From assembly GCA_038858525.1 (NCBI GenBank), contig JAWCFL010000001.1:30001-62000 (forward strand): DNA of 32,000 nucleotides, in the 5' to 3' direction. The notes beneath the pieces were generated by a model. It saw nothing but the letters and a program-made list of their open reading frames with translations, was not told the DNA's origin and ran no database searches. The stretch's first letter is position 1; each line of letters begins with the position of its first letter. Origin of the DNA: Candidatus Jordarchaeales archaeon. Lineage in GTDB: Archaea; Asgardarchaeota; Jordiarchaeia; Jordiarchaeales; Freyrarchaeaceae. The translations under genes and the position numbers were made by a program. Shown piece by piece: positions 5,277-31,477 of the stretch.

Positions 5277-6728
5277 TTAACCCTTAACGACACCTATGGG
5301 CCTCAATTTAGCCACCAATGATGCTATTCCCACTTTGTGGGAAACATCAACTACTAGGTCGACGTCCTTGTATGCTTCAGGCGCCTCTTCACTCATGACG
5401 ACTACGCTAGCCGCTTCTACCAGGATTCCAGACTTTTGAAGCTCATTCTTGACTTTTTCACCCCAAAACCTCTTCTTCGCAGTCGCCCTGCTAAGCCTCC
5501 GGCCCGCGCCATGCGCCGTAGAGCCAAAGCTTAACTCCATGGATTCAGCTCTCCCTCTTAGAACATAACTGGCAGTACCCATAGTTCCAGGTATAAGAAC
5601 CGGCTGGCCGGTTTCTCTATATTTCTGAGGAATATCTGGATGGCCCGGTGGAAAAGCTCTAGTGGCACCTTTCCTATGAACGCATAGAACTTTTTCTTCA
5701 CCGTCAACGCGGTGTTTCTCGAACTTGGCAATGTTATGAGCCACGTCGTACACTATTCGGATTCCAAGATCTTCAGGTGAGGAAGAGAAAACCTTACCGA
5801 AAGATTCACGCACCCAATGCGTTATGCACTGTCTATTTGCCCATGCAAAGTTAGCGGCGGATGCCATTGCTGCAATATAACTTTCTCCTTCCTTACTTTT
5901 TCCAGGAACTGCAGCTAGCTCCCTGTCTGGAAGTGATAGCCCGTATTTTCCCATGGCATGCTCCATAATCTTCAAGTAGTCAGAGCAGATCTGATGGCCA
6001 AGACCGCGTGAACCAGTATGTATAAGAACTGCTATTTGTCCCTCGAATAAATCCATCCGCTTTGCTGCTTCTTCATCGTAAACATGCTCAACATATTGAA
6101 TTTCGAGGAAGTGGTTTCCACTGCCGAGCGTTCCAAGTTGAGGTGCCCCACGCTCCCTTGCCTTAGAGGATACTTTGCTAGCGTCAGCGTTCTTGAGGCA
6201 ACCTTCCTCCTCACAGTACAGTCTGTCTTCCTCCCACCCGAAGCCTTTCTCTATAGCCCAGTTAACACCAGATTCAAGAACATCATCTAGTTCAGAGGAA
6301 GACACCCTTATTTTTCCTTCTGAGCCGACGCCACTAGGAATTTCTCTAAATAGAATGCTTAGTAGCTCTTTGAGCTTTGGGATAACTTCGTTCTTTGACA
6401 GGTTTGTTCTAAGCAAGCGAACCCCGCAGTTTATATCGTAACCAACTCCGCCCGGAGAGACAACTCCGTCCTCTTCGAAATCGACGGCGGCGACTCCCCC
6501 AATAGGAAAACCATACCCTTGATGCGCATCAGGCAAGGCTATAGAGTTTTTTTGAATCCCTGGTAGGCATGCAACATTCATAGCTTGAACCAGTGTTTGG
6601 TCCTTCTTCATTCCATCAAGAAGCTCTTCATTTGCAAAGATCCTAGCTGGCACACGCATACATTTTTTCGCGTCCTTCGGTATCTCCCATATTAAATTAC
6701 TTATCTTTTTTACAGGAAGCTGAGACAA
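5277..6728 (-). CDS. rtcB: RtcB RNA 2',3'-cyclic phosphate/5'-OH ligase (tRNA splicing ligase)
   Basis: 483 aa, TTG start after AAGGAGGA; PDAHQGYGFPIG, GYDINCGVR, GSGNHFLE, HTGSRGLG, YDVAHN, HRKGATRAF, HGAGR, EEAPEAYK; no intein. Confidence 0.97.
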   Translation of the reverse strand: MSQLPVKKISNLIWEIPKDAKKCMRVPARIFANEELLDGMKKDQTLVQAMNVACLPGIQKNSIALPDAHQGYGFPIGGVAAVDFEEDGVVSPGGVGYDINCGVRLLRTNLSKNEVIPKLKELLSILFREIPSGVGSEGKIRVSSSELDDVLESGVNWAIEKGFGWEEDRLYCEEEGCLKNADASKVSSKARERGAPQLGTLGSGNHFLEIQYVEHVYDEEAAKRMDLFEGQIAVLIHTGSRGLGHQICSDYLKIMEHAMGKYGLSLPDRELAAVPGKSKEGESYIAAMASAANFAWANRQCITHWVRESFGKVFSSSPEDLGIRIVYDVAHNIAKFEKHRVDGEEKVLCVHRKGATRAFPPGHPDIPQKYRETGQPVLIPGTMGTASYVLRGRAESMELSFGSTAHGAGRRLSRATAKKRFWGEKVKNELQKSGILVEAASVVVMSEEAPEAYKDVDLVVDVSHKVGIASLVAKLRPIGVVKG

Positions 6729-10261: not shown

Positions 10262-10365
10262 CGAGAAAACCGTCCAAAAATGCTTTTACATGAAAACTTG
10301 TAATGAGAGGAAATATTTTTCTTTGGTTAGAAAGAGAGGTGAAGGTGCTTTTCGAGGAAGAGGTG

Positions 10366-11607
10366 ATGAAGGTGAGTAGGATCAGGGATGTTAAAGCGCG
10401 AAGAATAATTGACTCAAGGGGAAACGCTACAATAGAAGTAATTGTTTATGCCGGAGATGTTGCCGTTAGTGCATGCGCCCCGTCAGGAGCAAGTGTTGGA
10501 CGACATGAGGCGCAAGCATTTCCTAAAGGAGGGGTAGAGGAGTCCATCAGGATGATTGAGGCATTATCACGTGTCCTGAAGGGAATGAGTGTTGAGGACC
10601 AGGAATCAGTAGATAAGGCGATCCGTGAGTTCGATGGTACAGGGAATCTTAGCAGGGTTGGCGGTAACGCGGCCATAGCTCTTTCGGTTGCTGTGGCAAA
10701 AGCTGCAGCAGCAATCAAAGGCGTTCCTCTTTGTAGATGCTTCAGCGACCGACTAGAAGCGCCATTCCCCTTAAGCAACATTATAGGAGGAGGGGTTCAC
10801 ACTAGAGGTGATTCTATAGACTTTCAAGAGTTTTTAGTTTTACCGGTTGGCGCTAAGAGTTTTGGTGAAGCGGCCAAAATAAACGTGATGGTTCACAGAG
10901 AAGTTTCCCGCATTTTAACGGAGCGATTCCCAAAATATGTGTTTGGGAGGAACGATGAGGGAGCCTGGGCGGCTCCATTAACCATAAGAGAGGCCCTTGA
11001 AGTCCTTTCCTCAGCAGTGCAGAGAGTTGAGGGCGAAGTGGGCGTTAAGATCCGGGTTGGAGTGGATGCCGCGGCTTCAAGCATCTGGAATGAGAAGAGG
11101 AATATGTATGTTTATAGAAAAGAGGGGTTCGAAAAGACGATTGAACAGCAGCTAGAATATGTTTCATCATTAATCGAGGACTACGGTGTGGCTTACTTTG
11201 AAGACCCGTTTAATGAGGAGGACTTTGACTCATTTGCAAAGTTGAAAGCGTCTCTGGGAAGAAAGTGTATAGTCACAGGAGACGACTTGACCGTGACTAA
11301 CAGAGAAAGAATAAGGAAGGCTGTGGAGAAGGACGCTATTAATGGAGTAATAATAAAGCCAAATCAGATAGGAACACTTACAGATACCAAGATGGCAGTT
11401 GAACTTGCTTCCTCAAGGAAAATAGTTCCAATAGCTTCTCATAGGTCGGGTGAAACATGTGACCCGGCATTAGCTCACATAGCGGTAGGTATGAGGTGCC
11501 CTATCATTAAAATAGGAATAATGGGAGGCGAAAGAATGGCAAAGATAAACGAGATCATAAGAATCGAAGAGGAACTGAGAATTAGGATGGCAAATCCTCC
11601 CATTTGA
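10366..11607 (+). CDS. eno: Enolase
   Basis: DSRGNATIEV, APSGASVG, NIIGGGVH, QEF, NDEGA, EDPF, GDDLTVTN, IKPNQIGT, SHRSGET. Real start likely ATG 10366 or GTG 10372 (GAGGTGA SD at 10360-10366) rather than 10303. Confidence 0.96.
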   Translation: MKVSRIRDVKARRIIDSRGNATIEVIVYAGDVAVSACAPSGASVGRHEAQAFPKGGVEESIRMIEALSRVLKGMSVEDQESVDKAIREFDGTGNLSRVGGNAAIALSVAVAKAAAAIKGVPLCRCFSDRLEAPFPLSNIIGGGVHTRGDSIDFQEFLVLPVGAKSFGEAAKINVMVHREVSRILTERFPKYVFGRNDEGAWAAPLTIREALEVLSSAVQRVEGEVGVKIRVGVDAAASSIWNEKRNMYVYRKEGFEKTIEQQLEYVSSLIEDYGVAYFEDPFNEEDFDSFAKLKASLGRKCIVTGDDLTVTNRERIRKAVEKDAINGVIIKPNQIGTLTDTKMAVELASSRKIVPIASHRSGETCDPALAHIAVGMRCPIIKIGIMGGERMAKINEIIRIEEELRIRMANPPI

Positions 11608-11608
11608 C

Positions 11609-12067
11609 ATGGAGGGATATAATATTTTCAATGAGATAGCGGAATTCATAGAAACAAGATATGCTAACGCACGTAAAATAATTGAAGTGGGGTTTGGAGG
11701 GCGGACAGAGACAGCGATTAAATTGGCGAAAAAAATTAATGCAGAGATAATTTTGACAGATGTAAATCCAGATTTCTTAAATACAGAGTTAAATGCAGAG
11801 CTTAAAGGTAGTATCAGAGTAGTTATAGATGACATATTCAATCCAAACTGGAAGTTATATGAAAAAGCGAATTTAATATATGCGATAAGGCCAAACCCTG
11901 AATTACAAAAACAGATAATTGATGTAGCCTCTAAATCAGGGGCGGATGCGCTTCTTAAAGTCCTAAGCGATGAATGGCCTGAAACAGAGAACATGAACAT
12001 GAAACATGAGGTAATTAACTATAAAGGGGTCATACTTCATTTTTTCGTAAACACTAAGCGCCATTAA
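11609..12067 (+). CDS. UPF0146 family protein
   Basis: 152 aa; KIIEVGFG, LTDVN, DDIFNPNWKLYEKANLIYAIRP.PEL pattern typical of archaeal UPF0146; starts one base after the eno stop. Confidence 0.8.
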   Translation: MEGYNIFNEIAEFIETRYANARKIIEVGFGGRTETAIKLAKKINAEIILTDVNPDFLNTELNAELKGSIRVVIDDIFNPNWKLYEKANLIYAIRPNPELQKQIIDVASKSGADALLKVLSDEWPETENMNMKHEVINYKGVILHFFVNTKRH

Positions 12068-12266: not shown

Positions 12267-14692
12267 TTGTCAAGGAATGAGAAAATCGTGCTCTGGTTTG
12301 AGGAGATAGGAAAGGAGGACGTTGCGCTTGTAGGCGGGAAATGCGCAAACCTTGGGGAAATGATCACAAAGGCTAAGGTGCCTGTACCTCCGGGGTTTGC
12401 GGTGACGACGTATGCATATAAACGATTCATAAAGGAGACCAAGATAATGGACAAGATCTTCAGCAAACTCAGGGAAATTGACGTTAGAGATTTGAAGCAA
12501 CTGGAAGAGGCGTCTAGAGAAATAAGGAAGCTTATTGAGGGGACTAAGGTTCCAGAAGACATACAGTCAGCTATATTAAGTGCTTATGATGATTTAGCAA
12601 GAAGAGTTGGCAGAGAGCCGCTTGTAGCTGTCCGTTCTAGCGCGTCGGCAGAGGATAGAGACAGGGTCTCCCTCTCTTGCCGGGCGCTAGTTTTGCCGGG
12701 CAGCAAGATACTTTCCTGAATGTCTCTAAAGGTGAGCTTGTAGAGAGTGTAAGGCGTTGCTGGAGTAGCCTATTTACTCCTAGAGCGATAGCATATAGAG
12801 AGGAGAAGGGGTTTAGACATGAGGACGTGTCAATAGGGGTTGCCGTTCAGGAGATGGTTGACGCGAAAGCTGCGGGAGTTATGTTTAGCATACACCCAGT
12901 TACAGGGGATAAAAACAGAATTCTTATAGAGGCCAGCTGGGGACTTGGTGAGGCCGTAGTAAGTGGGGCTGTGACCCCTGACACATACATAGTAGATAAA
13001 AAAACTTTTGAAATTCTCGAAAAACAAATTGCAACTAAAAAAGTGGAGCATATAAGGGATCCTAAAACTGGAAAGACGATACATGTGGAGGTCCCGAAGG
13101 AGAGGCAAAACGTTCCAGCCTTAACGGATGAAGAAATAAAGGCGCTGGCGAGATACGCCCGCCAGATAGAGCAGCATTATGGTACGCCGCAGGACATGGA
13201 GTGGGCTATTGACAAAGACGGGAGGATATTTATACTCCAAGCAAGGCCAGAAACAGTTCACTCGACGGGATCAGCCATAGTGGAGCAACGATTAGTGGAG
13301 GAAAAGGAGGGGGAAGTGCTGGTGAGGGGATTGCCTGTTTCACCAGGAGTAGGGGCAGGGAAAGTCAAGGTAATCCTTAACGTTAAGGACATTGACAAGG
13401 TCAAAGAGGGGGATGTGCTTGTCACTAAGATGACTACACCTGACTGGGTTCCAGCCATGAAGAGGGCGGCAGCAATAGTTACGGATGAGGGAGGATACAC
13501 TTGTCATGCAGCTATAGTGTCACGCGAGCTTGGCGTCCCATGTGTTGTTGGGACTGGAAACGCGACAGAGGTGCTGGTGAATGTTGATGCTGTGACTGTT
13601 GATGGTGGAAAAGGATTAGTGTATCGCGGGATAATTAAAGCTGCTAAGGAGGAAGAATTTAGAGCTCCGGCTGTCGTTGAAGCTCAGATGATGATTCCGA
13701 CTGCTACGAAGATATACGTTAACCTCTCAATACCAGAAATCGCTGATAAGGTTGCAAGGGAGACAATGGCTGATGGAGTTGGGCTTCTCAGAGCGGAGCA
13801 CATGATGGTGACCATAGGCAAGCATCCTCGGAAGCTTATAGAGGAAGGTGGAGAAAACCTAATGGTTGAAAAATTCGCAGAGGGAATACGGAAAGTTGCA
13901 GAAGCGTTCTACCCGGGACCTGTAGTTTACAGGTTCTTAGACTTTAAGCCGGACGAGTTCCTAGCCTTAGAAGGAGGGGAAAAATACGAGCTAGAGGCGG
14001 GGCACGTTGGTCCAAATCCCATGATAGGATACAGAGGCCAGTACAGGTACGTTAAGGAGCCAGATATATTCAGGTTGGAGTGCAGAGCTGTAAAGAAGGT
14101 TAGGGACGAGTTTGGGCTGAAAAACGTGTGGGTTATGGTTCCCTTTGTCAGCACAGTAGAGGTCTTCAGAGAAGTAAAAAGGATAATGAAAGAAGAAGGG
14201 CTTGACAGGGAGAAGGATCCGGACTTTAAACTGTGGATAATGGTTGAGGTGCCAAGCAGCGTCTTTCTTATAGATAAGTTCTGCGAGGAGGGCATAGATG
14301 GGGTTTCCTTCGGCACTAACGACCTTACAATGCTGGTGCTAGGAGTTGATAGGAACGACGCAGCTGTCCAGGAACTCTACGACGAACGCAACTTAGCAGT
14401 TCTTAGAGCAATAGCGTACACGATAAAGATATGCGAAAAATATGGAGTCACTACATCCATATGTGGGCAAGCTCCCAGTGTTTACCCAGACTACTTAGAG
14501 TTTCTAGTGAGAATGGGCGCTACCTCGATAAGTGTAAATCCAGATGCTGTGAAGCGAACACGTGAGATGGTGGCAAGAATAGAGCAGAAGATCATGATGG
14601 AAAAAGCGCTGAACGTGAAGCCCAGAATCAAAATAGGAAAAAGTTTTCTTGAAGAGGTGGCGTTCTGGAAATTGATAGACGATGAGGCATGA
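12267..14692 (+). CDS. ppsA: Phosphoenolpyruvate synthase (pyruvate,water dikinase), two exons 12267-12656 and 12677-14692; 801 aa after splicing
   Basis: Exon 1 ends VAVRSSASAED, exon 2 begins LPGASFAGQQDTFLNV; joined they give the conserved RSSAxAEDLPxASFAGQ motif. Also GGKCANLGEM, QARPETV, phospho-His motif TCHAAIVSRELG, FGTNDLT, SICGQAPS. 2426-20 = 2406 nt = 802 codons. Confidence 0.95.
12657..12676 (+). other. Candidate mRNA intron with canonical bulge-helix-bulge motif
   Basis: AGAGACAGGGTCTCCCTCTC. Outer helix CGGCA(12646-50)/TGCCG(12678-82); central 4 bp GAGG(12651-54)/CCTC(12671-74); bulges ATA(12655-57) and TCT(12675-77); inner helix GAGAC/GTCTC with AGG loop. Cuts after the 2nd nt of each bulge fall exactly at the frame-restoring boundaries. 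Confidence 0.9.
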
Positions 14693-14831: not shown

Positions 14832-16232
14832 ATATCAACGCAGAAGTATTACCGCACAATATCTGAGATTGCGGGGCCGCTTATTATAGTAAGCGGCGTA
14901 AAAGATGTGGCTTACAATGAAGTTGTCCTCATTGAACTACCCAACGGAGAGACGAGAAGAGGGACAGTCCTAGAGGTCGGTTTAGGCAAGGCGGTGGTTC
15001 AAGTATTCGAAGGGACAAGAGGAATTGATGCGAAGGATACTACTGTTAGGTTTACTGGGGAGACGATGAAGCTACCAGTTTCAATAGACATGATGGGGCG
15101 AATATTCAGTGGGTCGGGAGACCCGATAGATGGCGGTCCACCGATAATTCCTGAAGACGAGCTAGACATACATGGCTACCCACTTAACCCATATGCAAGG
15201 GAATACCCAAGAGAGTTCATTCAAACGGGTTTAAGCGTAATAGATGGATTGAACTCCTTGGTCAGGGGGCAGAAACTACCAATATTTTCAGGGGCAGGGC
15301 TACCTCACAACAGGATAGCAGTTCAAATCGCTAGGCAAGCAAAGGTTTTAGGGAAGGAGGAGGAGTTCGCCGTCGTCTTTGCTGCAATGGGTATAACGGC
15401 GGAGGAGGCAAGGTTCTTCAGAGCAGACTTCGAAAGAACAGGGGCACTAGAGAGAGTTGTTCTCTTTATGAATCTTGCAGACGACCCTGCGATTGAGAGA
15501 ATAATAACTCCACGTGTAGCCTTAACAGCGGCAGAGTACTTAGCATATGAGCATGACATGCACATTCTCGTGATACTTACAGACATGACAAATTATGCTG
15601 AAGCTCTGAGGGAGATAAGTGCTGCAAGGGAAGAAGTTCCGGGAAGAAGAGGATACCCAGGTTACCTTTACACTGACCTCGCAACTATATATGAAAGAGC
15701 TGGACGCATAAGGGGAAGGAAGGGAACGATAACGCAGATGCCAATTTTGACAATGCCTAATGACGACATCACTCATCCGATCCCAGACCTCACCGGATAC
15801 ATTACCGAGGGGCAACTAATAGTTGACAGAGGACTCCACAGAAAGGGAATATACCCGCCCATTGATCCTAGACCAAGCTTGAGTAGGCTTATGAAGGAAG
15901 GTATAGGAAAGGGAAGAACTAGGAAGGACCACAGAGAGGTCAGCGACCAGTTATATTACGCTTACAGTGAGGCTGTTGACCTTAGAGCGCTGGTAGCTGT
16001 CGTCGGTGAAGAAGCACTCCTCCCAAGAGACAGGAAATACTTAGAGTTCGGAGACCTCTTCGAAAGAAGATTCATAAATCAAGGGGAATATGAAGAACGC
16101 AGTATAGAAGAAACACTAGACCTCGGATGGGAACTACTAAGTATGTTTCCTGAAGGAGAACTAAAAAGAATAGACCCAGAAACCATCAATTGGGCGAAGC
16201 AAGAAGGAAAGTATACGTTTACTGGCGAGTAA
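14832..16232 (+). CDS. atpB: A/V-type ATP synthase subunit B; probable non-canonical ATA start (466 aa)
   Basis: Track ORF (GTG 14907) extends in frame to [27 protein letters not shown], the conserved N-terminus; in-frame TAG at 14817-19; SD GGGAGTGA ends 4 nt before ATA 14832. Body: [52 protein letters not shown]. Confidence 0.95.
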
Positions 16233-16341: not shown

Positions 16342-16776
16342 TTATGCTGCTCGGAAAAGCCAAGGTGCTTTTTGTATTAGCATCCAGTGGAGGAATATTA
16401 CTGATATTATAGTTAGAATTAATCCAACTGCTAGTAGTTTCGTGGCGTAGCTTGGATTATACACGTTCTTTGTGGCCTCATAGGCGAGGGTGATCCCTAT
16501 GAATCCGATAAATATTAGGATCGCTACAGCGATTCCTTCTGTTAAATATTGGTCTTGAAAGTTTGTGTTTATGAAGCCGAAGCTTATTTGGGAAGGATTT
16601 AGCATGAGATGAATCCCGCCGCTGAGAACAAACAGAGAGAAAACTACGAAAGCTGCGGCAAGAAGTATGTTTGGTGGATTACGTAGCCAAGTTATCCTCT
16701 TTGTTACCGTTTTCCTCGTCTTTGTTACCGTTTTCCGTAGCCACGCTACAATTTTCGCTGATGCTTTTCTGGACAG
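16342..16776 (-). CDS. OST3/OST6-family, DC2/OSTC-like oligosaccharyltransferase accessory subunit (3 TM); probable CTG start (144 aa)
   Basis: Track ORF (16605) extends in frame to CTG 16776 behind CAGGAGGG. Sequence MSRKASAK...NPPNILLAAAFVVFSLFVLSGGIHLMLNP..FGFINTNFQDQYLTEGIAVAILIFIGFIG..LLAVGLILTII..QKAPWL recalls DC2/OSTC motifs (GGIIYD..F....NGQYIMEG..KLPGYL); comparison by eye from memory. Confidence 0.72.
   Translation of the reverse strand: MSRKASAKIVAWLRKTVTKTRKTVTKRITWLRNPPNILLAAAFVVFSLFVLSGGIHLMLNPSQISFGFINTNFQDQYLTEGIAVAILIFIGFIGITLAYEATKNVYNPSYATKLLAVGLILTIISVIFLHWMLIQKAPWLFRAA
16698..16736. repeat. Tandem duplication, 18-bp unit at 21-bp period (RKTVTKT RKTVTKR)
   Basis: TCTTTGTTACCGTTTTCC at 16698-16715 and 16719-16736. 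Confidence 0.9.
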
Positions 16777-28796: not shown

Positions 28797-28833
28797 TAGG
28801 GATAATCTTTGTTCAGTGAGAGAAGCGTACGGT

Positions 28834-28967
28834 GCGGGGGTTCCCTAGTTTGGCCAACTCTGAGACTGGCTAAAGGGGCCGGGCTTAGGTCCAGAGTGGT
28901 AAGAAACCCGGTGGTGTAGAATGTTAAGTAGCACAAACCTGCGTGGGTTCAAATCCCACCCCCCGCA
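28834..28967 (+). tRNA. tRNA-Leu(UAG) with three introns (28858-28873, 28890-28905, 28920-28936)
   Basis: Acceptor GCGGGGG/CCCCCGC+A, T-arm GTGGG-TTCAAAT-CCCAC, anticodon arm CCGGG-CTTAGGA-CCCGG; removing 16+16+17 nt gives an 85-nt class II tRNA; each intron has a 4-bp central helix with 3-nt bulges. Confidence 0.92.
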
Positions 28968-29029
28968 TCACTTGAGTGCTTTTGCAGTTTTGGAATTCCG
29001 TCTCTTCATTTAGAGGGAGGAATTTTTCT

Positions 29030-31350: not shown

Positions 31351-31477
31351 TGGTGCAGGGGGTGGGATTTGAACCCACGCAGGCTTACGTTCCCAGTTTG
31401 GGTCTACGCCACGCGGGCCTCAGCCGCGTTCCTTTGACTTAGCCCATAGTATACACGTCTGGCTCGGACACCCCTGC
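31351..31477 (-). tRNA. tRNA-Leu(GAG) with two introns (31439-31458 D-loop; 31385-31403 variable loop) and encoded CCA
   Basis: Mature GCAGGGGTGTCCGAGCCAG|GTCAAAGGAACGCGGCTGAGGCCCGCGTGGCGTAG|GCCTGCGTGGGTTCAAATCCCACCCCCTGCA (85 nt) + CCA; central helices AGCC/GGCT and GCGT/ACGT with 3-nt bulges. Confidence 0.93.

Follow-up and report, generated by a model that had tools for sequence, protein, structure and literature searches.

The DNA analyzed here, referred to below as the window, is a stretch of 32,000 nucleotides from a Jordarchaeales genome in which the ppsA gene, the sole PF01326 gene of that genome, is split by a 20-nt BHB intron at 12657–12676, which separates the Asp codon of the PEP synthase motif from the Leu codon that follows. 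Both exons are on the forward strand, and the arrangement of the elements around the junction is as follows.

12267..12656, +, ppsA exon 1, 130 codons, the last being the Asp of SSASAED
12651..12654, +, BHB central helix (4 bp), exon strand, pairing with 12671–74 (97.7% of cells paired across 11 alleles)
12655..12657, +, 5′ bulge AUA; cut predicted at 12656/12657 from the BHB rule, the junction being identical in an excised contig (L194)
12657..12676, +, intron, 20 nt, with an inner 5-bp hairpin (12658–62/12666–70) plus the strand that it contributes to the central helix (12671–74)
12675..12677, +, 3′ bulge UCU; cut predicted at 12676/12677; all-pyrimidine in the source species only
12677..14692, +, ppsA exon 2, 671 codons and stop, annotated in the database as a separate truncated protein
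12717..12719, +, stop codon met by the unspliced RNA

The geometry is that of a canonical BHB, in which a central helix of 4 bp lies between two bulges of 3 nt, one on each strand, and the exon and intron helices have 13 and 5 bp. Removal of the intron, with each bulge cut between its second and third bases, produces an open 801-aa PEP synthase frame containing the conserved motif. The products of the two exons tile positions 2–130 and 126–784 of TIGR01418, and the intron-free P0142 scores 958.5 against this model (cut-off 739.75). Without splicing the reading frame ends at 12717–12719 and yields a 150-aa truncated peptide, as the initial annotation had stated. A sigma-70 scan was uninformative, the host being an archaeon. 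The gene is preceded by enolase and a UPF0146 gene in both of the Jordarchaeia families that carry the insert, and its 3′ neighbor is V-ATPase subunit B here and ribosomal L16 in the other family (10303–12067 +, 14907–16232 +). Two copies of a direct repeat of about 20 nt lie in an intergenic region at about 16690–16735.

Distribution and probable excision of the insert

An insert is present at this one codon boundary in all 14 distinct alleles identified, which represent two Jordarchaeia families and range through lengths of 18, 19, 20, 28, 29 and 30 nt. These alleles derive from the eight readable ppsA-bearing genomes of the order plus all further assemblies retrieved; two genomes have no ppsA match, and a ninth (G001), outside the readable set, is masked at the insert site with flanking coordinates that imply about 19 nt. 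The intron-bearing ppsA genes form a single clade (SH-aLRT 98 in a quick tree search) and their proteins have diverged to 71–74% identity. Because the insert occupies the same boundary throughout a single clade with this degree of divergence, the intron is old and has been retained, as expected of the established intron, rather than recent insertion, that had been suggested from the sequence initially. Comparison of the alleles indicates that it was likely gained once, in the ancestor of both families. As a consequence, ppsA is mis-annotated as a truncated protein throughout the order. The central helix has four of four pairs in every allele except those of one species with three of four, and in the second family the inner helix is less tightly paired. 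In Candidatus Freyarchaeum deiterrae (L012, L206) there is an A–C mismatch in the central helix (3/4 pairs), implying a relaxed enzyme.

An exactly excised form is known for a single allele, from a relative that belongs to the other family than the source genome. Logan contig L194 (SRR28530378) is identical to L208 (SRR28530383) across 15,894 nt apart from missing exactly the 30-nt insert, at the predicted junction, and runs within one series assemble ppsA in either an intron-bearing or an intron-free form. Similarly, a full-length EF-2 gene (L284:5150–7351, from the neighboring run SRR28530379) is identical to the split EF-2 present in three other Logan contigs. A mixture of RNA and DNA reads would be expected to leave different genes without introns from run to run, as in this series, and the excised contig is probably RNA-derived. 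A precise genomic loss may also be its source, because an uninterrupted EF-2 occurs in some genomes of the order. The EF-2 intron is patchy within the order, being missing from some genomes, unlike the ppsA intron, and the contig with the full-length EF-2 also carries genes for an EndA subunit and a CCA-adding enzyme. No spliced-junction pattern was found in viral contigs.

The enzymes that would be needed are encoded in the genome, which has two EndA paralogues (PF01974) and one RtcB (PF01139), all over cut-off, and these presumably act on the ppsA intron. The ligase gene lies in the window.

5277..6728, -, gene for the RNA ligase RtcB, which probably joins the exons, 5.5 kb upstream of ppsA

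We consider it extremely unlikely that there is no splicing at all, with the two halves made separately, joined through a programmed frameshift or left as a pseudogene, and with the RNA stem around the junction serving some other role. Such an arrangement would fit with exon 2 opening on TTG or CTG, either of which could serve as a start codon, and being annotated as its own protein, but the inserts span all three frames among the alleles, which is beyond any single frameshift, and those that are in frame contain stops. Moreover, the break falls within a nucleotide-binding motif, the BHB cut rule restores exactly the intron-less protein, an exactly excised contig exists, and ppsA is single-copy in the genome.

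The exon-exon stem and the codons that form it

The initial annotation described an exon-exon stem of about 13 bp around the BHB, and this pairing is confirmed position by position. It consists of seven Watson-Crick pairs (12637–12643/12684–12690), a U12645–G12683 pair, and five pairs at 12646–12650/12678–12682, with G12644 bulged. All 13 pairs form here, but only about nine are conserved in relatives; the outer three, together with a second exon-exon helix of 8 bp (12627–34/12697–704) that lies outside the stem and had been overlooked, are mostly specific to the source species. The pairs of this extra helix have probabilities of 0.89–1.0 at 60°C and a z of -2.9 against synonymous recoding.

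12627..12634, +, extra 8-bp helix, 5′ strand; pairing strongly here and sporadically among relatives
12637..12650, +, 5′ arm of the 13-bp stem; conserved core 12640–12645 and 12648–12650
12678..12690, +, 3′ arm of the 13-bp stem, Leu-Pro-Gly-Ala-Ser codons; conserved core 12678–80 and 12682–87
12697..12704, +, extra 8-bp helix, 3′ strand

The structure is predicted to be far more stable than shuffled sequence. The 81-nt region has a folding energy of -45.6 kcal/mol (z -5.1), equalled by none of 200 shuffles, and the spliced junction, which retains the stem with a 7-nt loop, is the strongest 46-nt hairpin in the 2.4-kb coding sequence (-22.4 versus -15.8 for the next best). For the cut exons at 60°C, the full stem gives a duplex of -15 kcal/mol versus -3.4 for the proximal pairs alone. 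Recoding of the distal codons lowers the predicted BHB occupancy at 60°C from 0.185 to a median of 0.03, and none of 100 recodings matches the native value; the effect is weaker in the second family, where 9–29% of recodings reach the native value in most tests. There is also a 9-nt direct repeat (12677–12685 and 12694–12702) generated by the codons, the second copy of which pairs in the extra outer helix. As a competing partner for the 5′ arm this repeat can be dismissed (probability 0.0).

Several lines of evidence suggest that synonymous codons have been selected to hold the splice structure, as originally proposed. First, the exon-exon duplex here is -21.8 kcal/mol, with a z of -3.8 (p ~0.003) against synonymous recodings of the same peptide with its own codon use. 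Those of the other intron alleles range from -14.4 to -20.3 kcal/mol (z -1.4 to -4.0; for the distal helix alone z is just -0.5 to -2.8 per allele), and the intron-less orthologs have a mean of -8.4 and a z of +0.1. Eight genes of the 162 in the intron-less set, which included the excised contig L194, reach -14.4 or lower, and seven of these eight have a GC3 of at least 0.59. Second, among the 366 ten-codon windows of ten intron-bearing genes the junction has the strongest synonymous conservation, ranking first with a mean z of 1.72 (0.73 for the best window elsewhere), and it stands out within each family separately; in seven intron-less Asgard genes the same window ranks 76 of 296. Third, Ser AGC (-5) and Gly GGC (+3), which lie beyond the minimal BHB and pair with each other's neighbors, are invariant in 10/10 genes, a property shared elsewhere by none of 58 six-fold and one of 154 four-fold codons. 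Finally, eight or nine of the nine core pairs form in every intron allele, and at most seven do so across 161 intron-less orthologs (3–7 in the nearest Asgard outgroups); the refuting outcome named in the initial annotation, equal complementarity in intron-less orthologs, is not what is seen. L194 was left out of both this 161-gene set and the codon-conservation test.

The codon constraint around the intron is thus well supported by sequence comparison, with the qualification that the alleles share one origin and are non-independent, so that p-values across alleles overstate. There are no two-sided compensatory changes in the nine core exon pairs, and one in a peripheral pair. Because the core has no such changes, its support is invariance from a single origin, along with one-sided U-A/U-G and A-U/G-U swaps, rather than covariation. 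These features would also be seen if the codons were invariant because a protein or guide RNA reads the sequence, or through hitch-hiking from the single origin, with the pairing incidental. We think this very improbable: synonymous sites elsewhere in the intron-bearing genes are near saturation (0.38–0.40 identity), so that ancestry alone is insufficient, and the invariant positions are the paired ones, with the Ser codon at -3 taking any of the four bases at its third position, which is unpaired.

S-A-S-A-E-D is encoded by all intron alleles, and the Ser that here replaces a Thr is missing from each of 169 intron-less loci and from 206 other full-length proteins. The U introduced by the Thr-to-Ser change pairs with A or G in 11/11 aligned alleles and adds up to 1.7 kcal/mol. 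The change may have been fixed by drift, because it is one event.

Our favored interpretation, to which we assign a probability of about three in four, is that a tRNA-type BHB intron was gained once in the ppsA mRNA and is spliced by EndA and RtcB, and that the flanking codons provide a constitutive exon-exon clamp under selection. The splicing endonuclease, with its two EndA paralogues, would cut in both bulges, and RtcB would ligate the Asp130 codon to that of Leu131. The tRNA body that would otherwise hold the site is missing from an mRNA, and the flanking codons would supply the clamp in its place, closing the BHB and, following cleavage, holding both exon ends close for ligation; a role in both folding and ligation is likely, judging from the predicted structures. 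The peptide S-A-x-A-E-D-L-P-G-A is partly self-complementary through its amino acids, and purifying selection at synonymous positions, perhaps along with the one Thr-to-Ser change, would complete and maintain the helix, which may then have been extended to 13 + 8 pairs in the source species. Where transcription and translation are coupled, a stable stem would refold fast after passage of the ribosome.

The stem may have been built after the intron arrived or have been partly present before. It is conceivable, if doubtful, that the stem is the older of the two, and that the intron landed on a hairpin which the motif already formed and whose 7-nt loop gave it the shape of an anticodon arm, with its codons retained thereafter. 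The peptide does force part of the pairing, since intron-less orthologs with Leu-Pro-Gly mostly have 5–7 of the nine core pairs, the spliced RNA keeps a stem that closes just such a loop, and two GC-rich intron-less genes match ppsA here in duplex energy. However, none of the 161 intron-less genes reaches 8/9 in register, the nearest Asgard outgroups fall short as noted above, and the Ser is absent from all of the intron-less proteins surveyed. Retention across saturated synonymous divergence would still need selection, and this scenario differs from a clamp acquired after the intron in timing only.

Relationship to other mRNA introns

The best parallel for a BHB intron in an mRNA is that of cbf5 in the Desulfurococcales and Sulfolobales, where the intron is 16–44 nt and both cDNA and an enzyme assay demonstrate splicing (Yokobori et al. 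2009, PMC2738675). The ppsA intron resembles it in being short (18–30 nt here), in lying within a conserved coding motif at an Asp codon, in its cuts between the second and third bulge bases, its variable interior and its apparent single gain, and in having been overlooked by annotation. It differs in that ppsA belongs to central carbon metabolism and to the Asgard phylum, and in that the indication of excision here is a presumably RNA-derived contig. There is no synonymous-constraint analysis in PMC2738675 (the word 'synonymous' has no occurrences). In the literature searched a BHB intron within coding sequence is confirmed only for cbf5 (PMC2738675, PMC7714728), and no codon constraint around a BHB intron was found in that search, in which subscription journals were thinly covered. 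Another mRNA substrate of the archaeal splicing endonuclease is the HVO_1309 BHB intron of Haloferax (PMC7714728), which is in the 5′ UTR, outside of the coding sequence, and hence free of codon constraint, unlike that of ppsA.

Within the Asgard archaea, the non-canonical BHB introns described for tRNAs (PMC11291895; bioRxiv 10.64898/2026.10.13.758758) appear, from the portions of these sources available, to share lineage, motif, size range and enzymes with the ppsA intron; there the exon helix comes from the tRNA body, whereas in ppsA it comes from codons. The same portions report no coding-sequence introns, and PMC11291895, to that extent, lists PEP synthase in Freyarchaeia with the split gene unremarked.

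By analogy, the closest functional precedent for the clamp may lie in XBP1 mRNA (stem S1/ES1; Peschek et al. 2015, PMC4687415), in which an endonuclease releases a short coding-sequence intron and RtcB seals the exons, whose ends are juxtaposed by a long stem formed between them. XBP1 differs in that IRE1 cuts two 7-nt loops and there is no BHB, the splicing is stress-regulated, and a zipper rearranges post-cleavage. In ppsA, a gene of central metabolism has come to depend on a BHB intron in an Asgard order, and its coding sequence bears a measurable second code for splice structure. This raises the questions of what an mRNA requires to become a substrate for tRNA-splicing enzymes, and whether there is an archaeal counterpart of XBP1/HAC1-type mRNA splicing by an endonuclease and RtcB.

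Other introns of the genome and the slipped register

ARAGORN and Rfam identified no tRNA in the window until introns were removed manually, after which ARAGORN recognizes two tRNA-Leu genes with five introns between them.

28833..28969, +, tRNA-Leu(UAG), three introns (28858–73, 28890–905 and 28920–36)
31351..31477, -, tRNA-Leu(GAG), two introns (31439–58 and 31385–403)

Eight more BHB-type inserts of 16–31 nt, all ending in AA or AG, were located in coding sequences of the source genome through homology to an intron-poor relative (G011); on its contigs they are at C1+177182, C1+178227, C1-145146, C2+68773, C21+5929, C25-8184, C4+81118 (EF-2) and C44-4901.

The initial annotation pointed to two peculiarities of the ppsA site, and both are borne out. 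The 3′ bulge is all-pyrimidine (UCU), compared with AAA, AAA, AAA, AAG and AAG in the tRNA introns, and 12651–53 can slip onto 12674–76, a register predicted to be populated (0.39 at 37°C, 0.28 at 60°C) above the full BHB (0.10 at 37°C, ~0.18–0.19 at 60°C). It had further been suggested that these make the site weak or switchable, and we find this part of the proposal distinctly unlikely: splicing would be conditional, with PpsA, and so gluconeogenic PEP formation, switched by temperature, substrate or EndA level. The predominance of the slip over the BHB, with all registers within ~0.6 kcal/mol at 37°C, would be compatible with a switch, as would the 3′ bulge, which is the only one of the 14 introns examined in the genome without AA or AG, and the assembly of both intron-bearing and intron-free ppsA from one run series. 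A negative regulatory role has also been put forward, by proposal only, for the cbf5 intron (PMC2738675). Nonetheless, the slip is possible in only two of the 14 alleles, both of the source species, and the start of the 3′ bulge varies freely among alleles (UC, AG, AA, UA or CA). The energy differences are within the error of the model, which ignores enzyme binding, and the BHB share is nearly flat, at just 0.10–0.18 across 37–70°C. The truncated product is not conserved, varying from 130 to 155 aa, and a conserved partner or sensor element was looked for and none found.

Comparison with other sites points in the same direction. The predicted BHB occupancy of 0.19 (60°C) in ppsA is above the median of 0.10 for the 13 other introns of the genome; essential tRNA introns span 0.00–0.44, with weaker-looking sites among them, and for the allele represented by the excised contig two-bulge occupancy is predicted at 0.02–0.03. 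Since low predicted occupancy is common at such sites, it does not point to a switch. The first bulge base is where EndA stacks (PMC12397907), and the UC bulge may for this reason be cut more slowly; we read it as tolerated drift. A strong stem as compensation for the pyrimidine bulge was also considered and is unsupported, as the core stems of L003 and L004 are just as strong and their bulges are purine. It is unlikely, taking the strongest form of the proposal, that ppsA splicing is incomplete and regulated so as to gate gluconeogenesis through EndA/RtcB with an XBP1-like stem, and that RNA structure fixed an amino-acid change in the most conserved motif of the enzyme.

The constitutive clamp that we favor for ppsA does not appear to extend to the genome as a whole. 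The exon stem is significantly strong or comparable in only one of the eight other mRNA introns (that of EF-2), with a mean z of -0.6, and a genome-wide rule of long exon stems is unsupported in this small set, for which the screen was insensitive. With seven of the eight having no comparable stem, a long clamp is not generally required. Two further loci were noted. Several frameshifts at C1 113500–114500 (-) have no BHB-like hairpins and probably mark a decayed helicase-like gene, and near C21 14226–14248 (-) there is another frameshifting insert with a hairpin, the boundaries of which fit a canonical BHB poorly.
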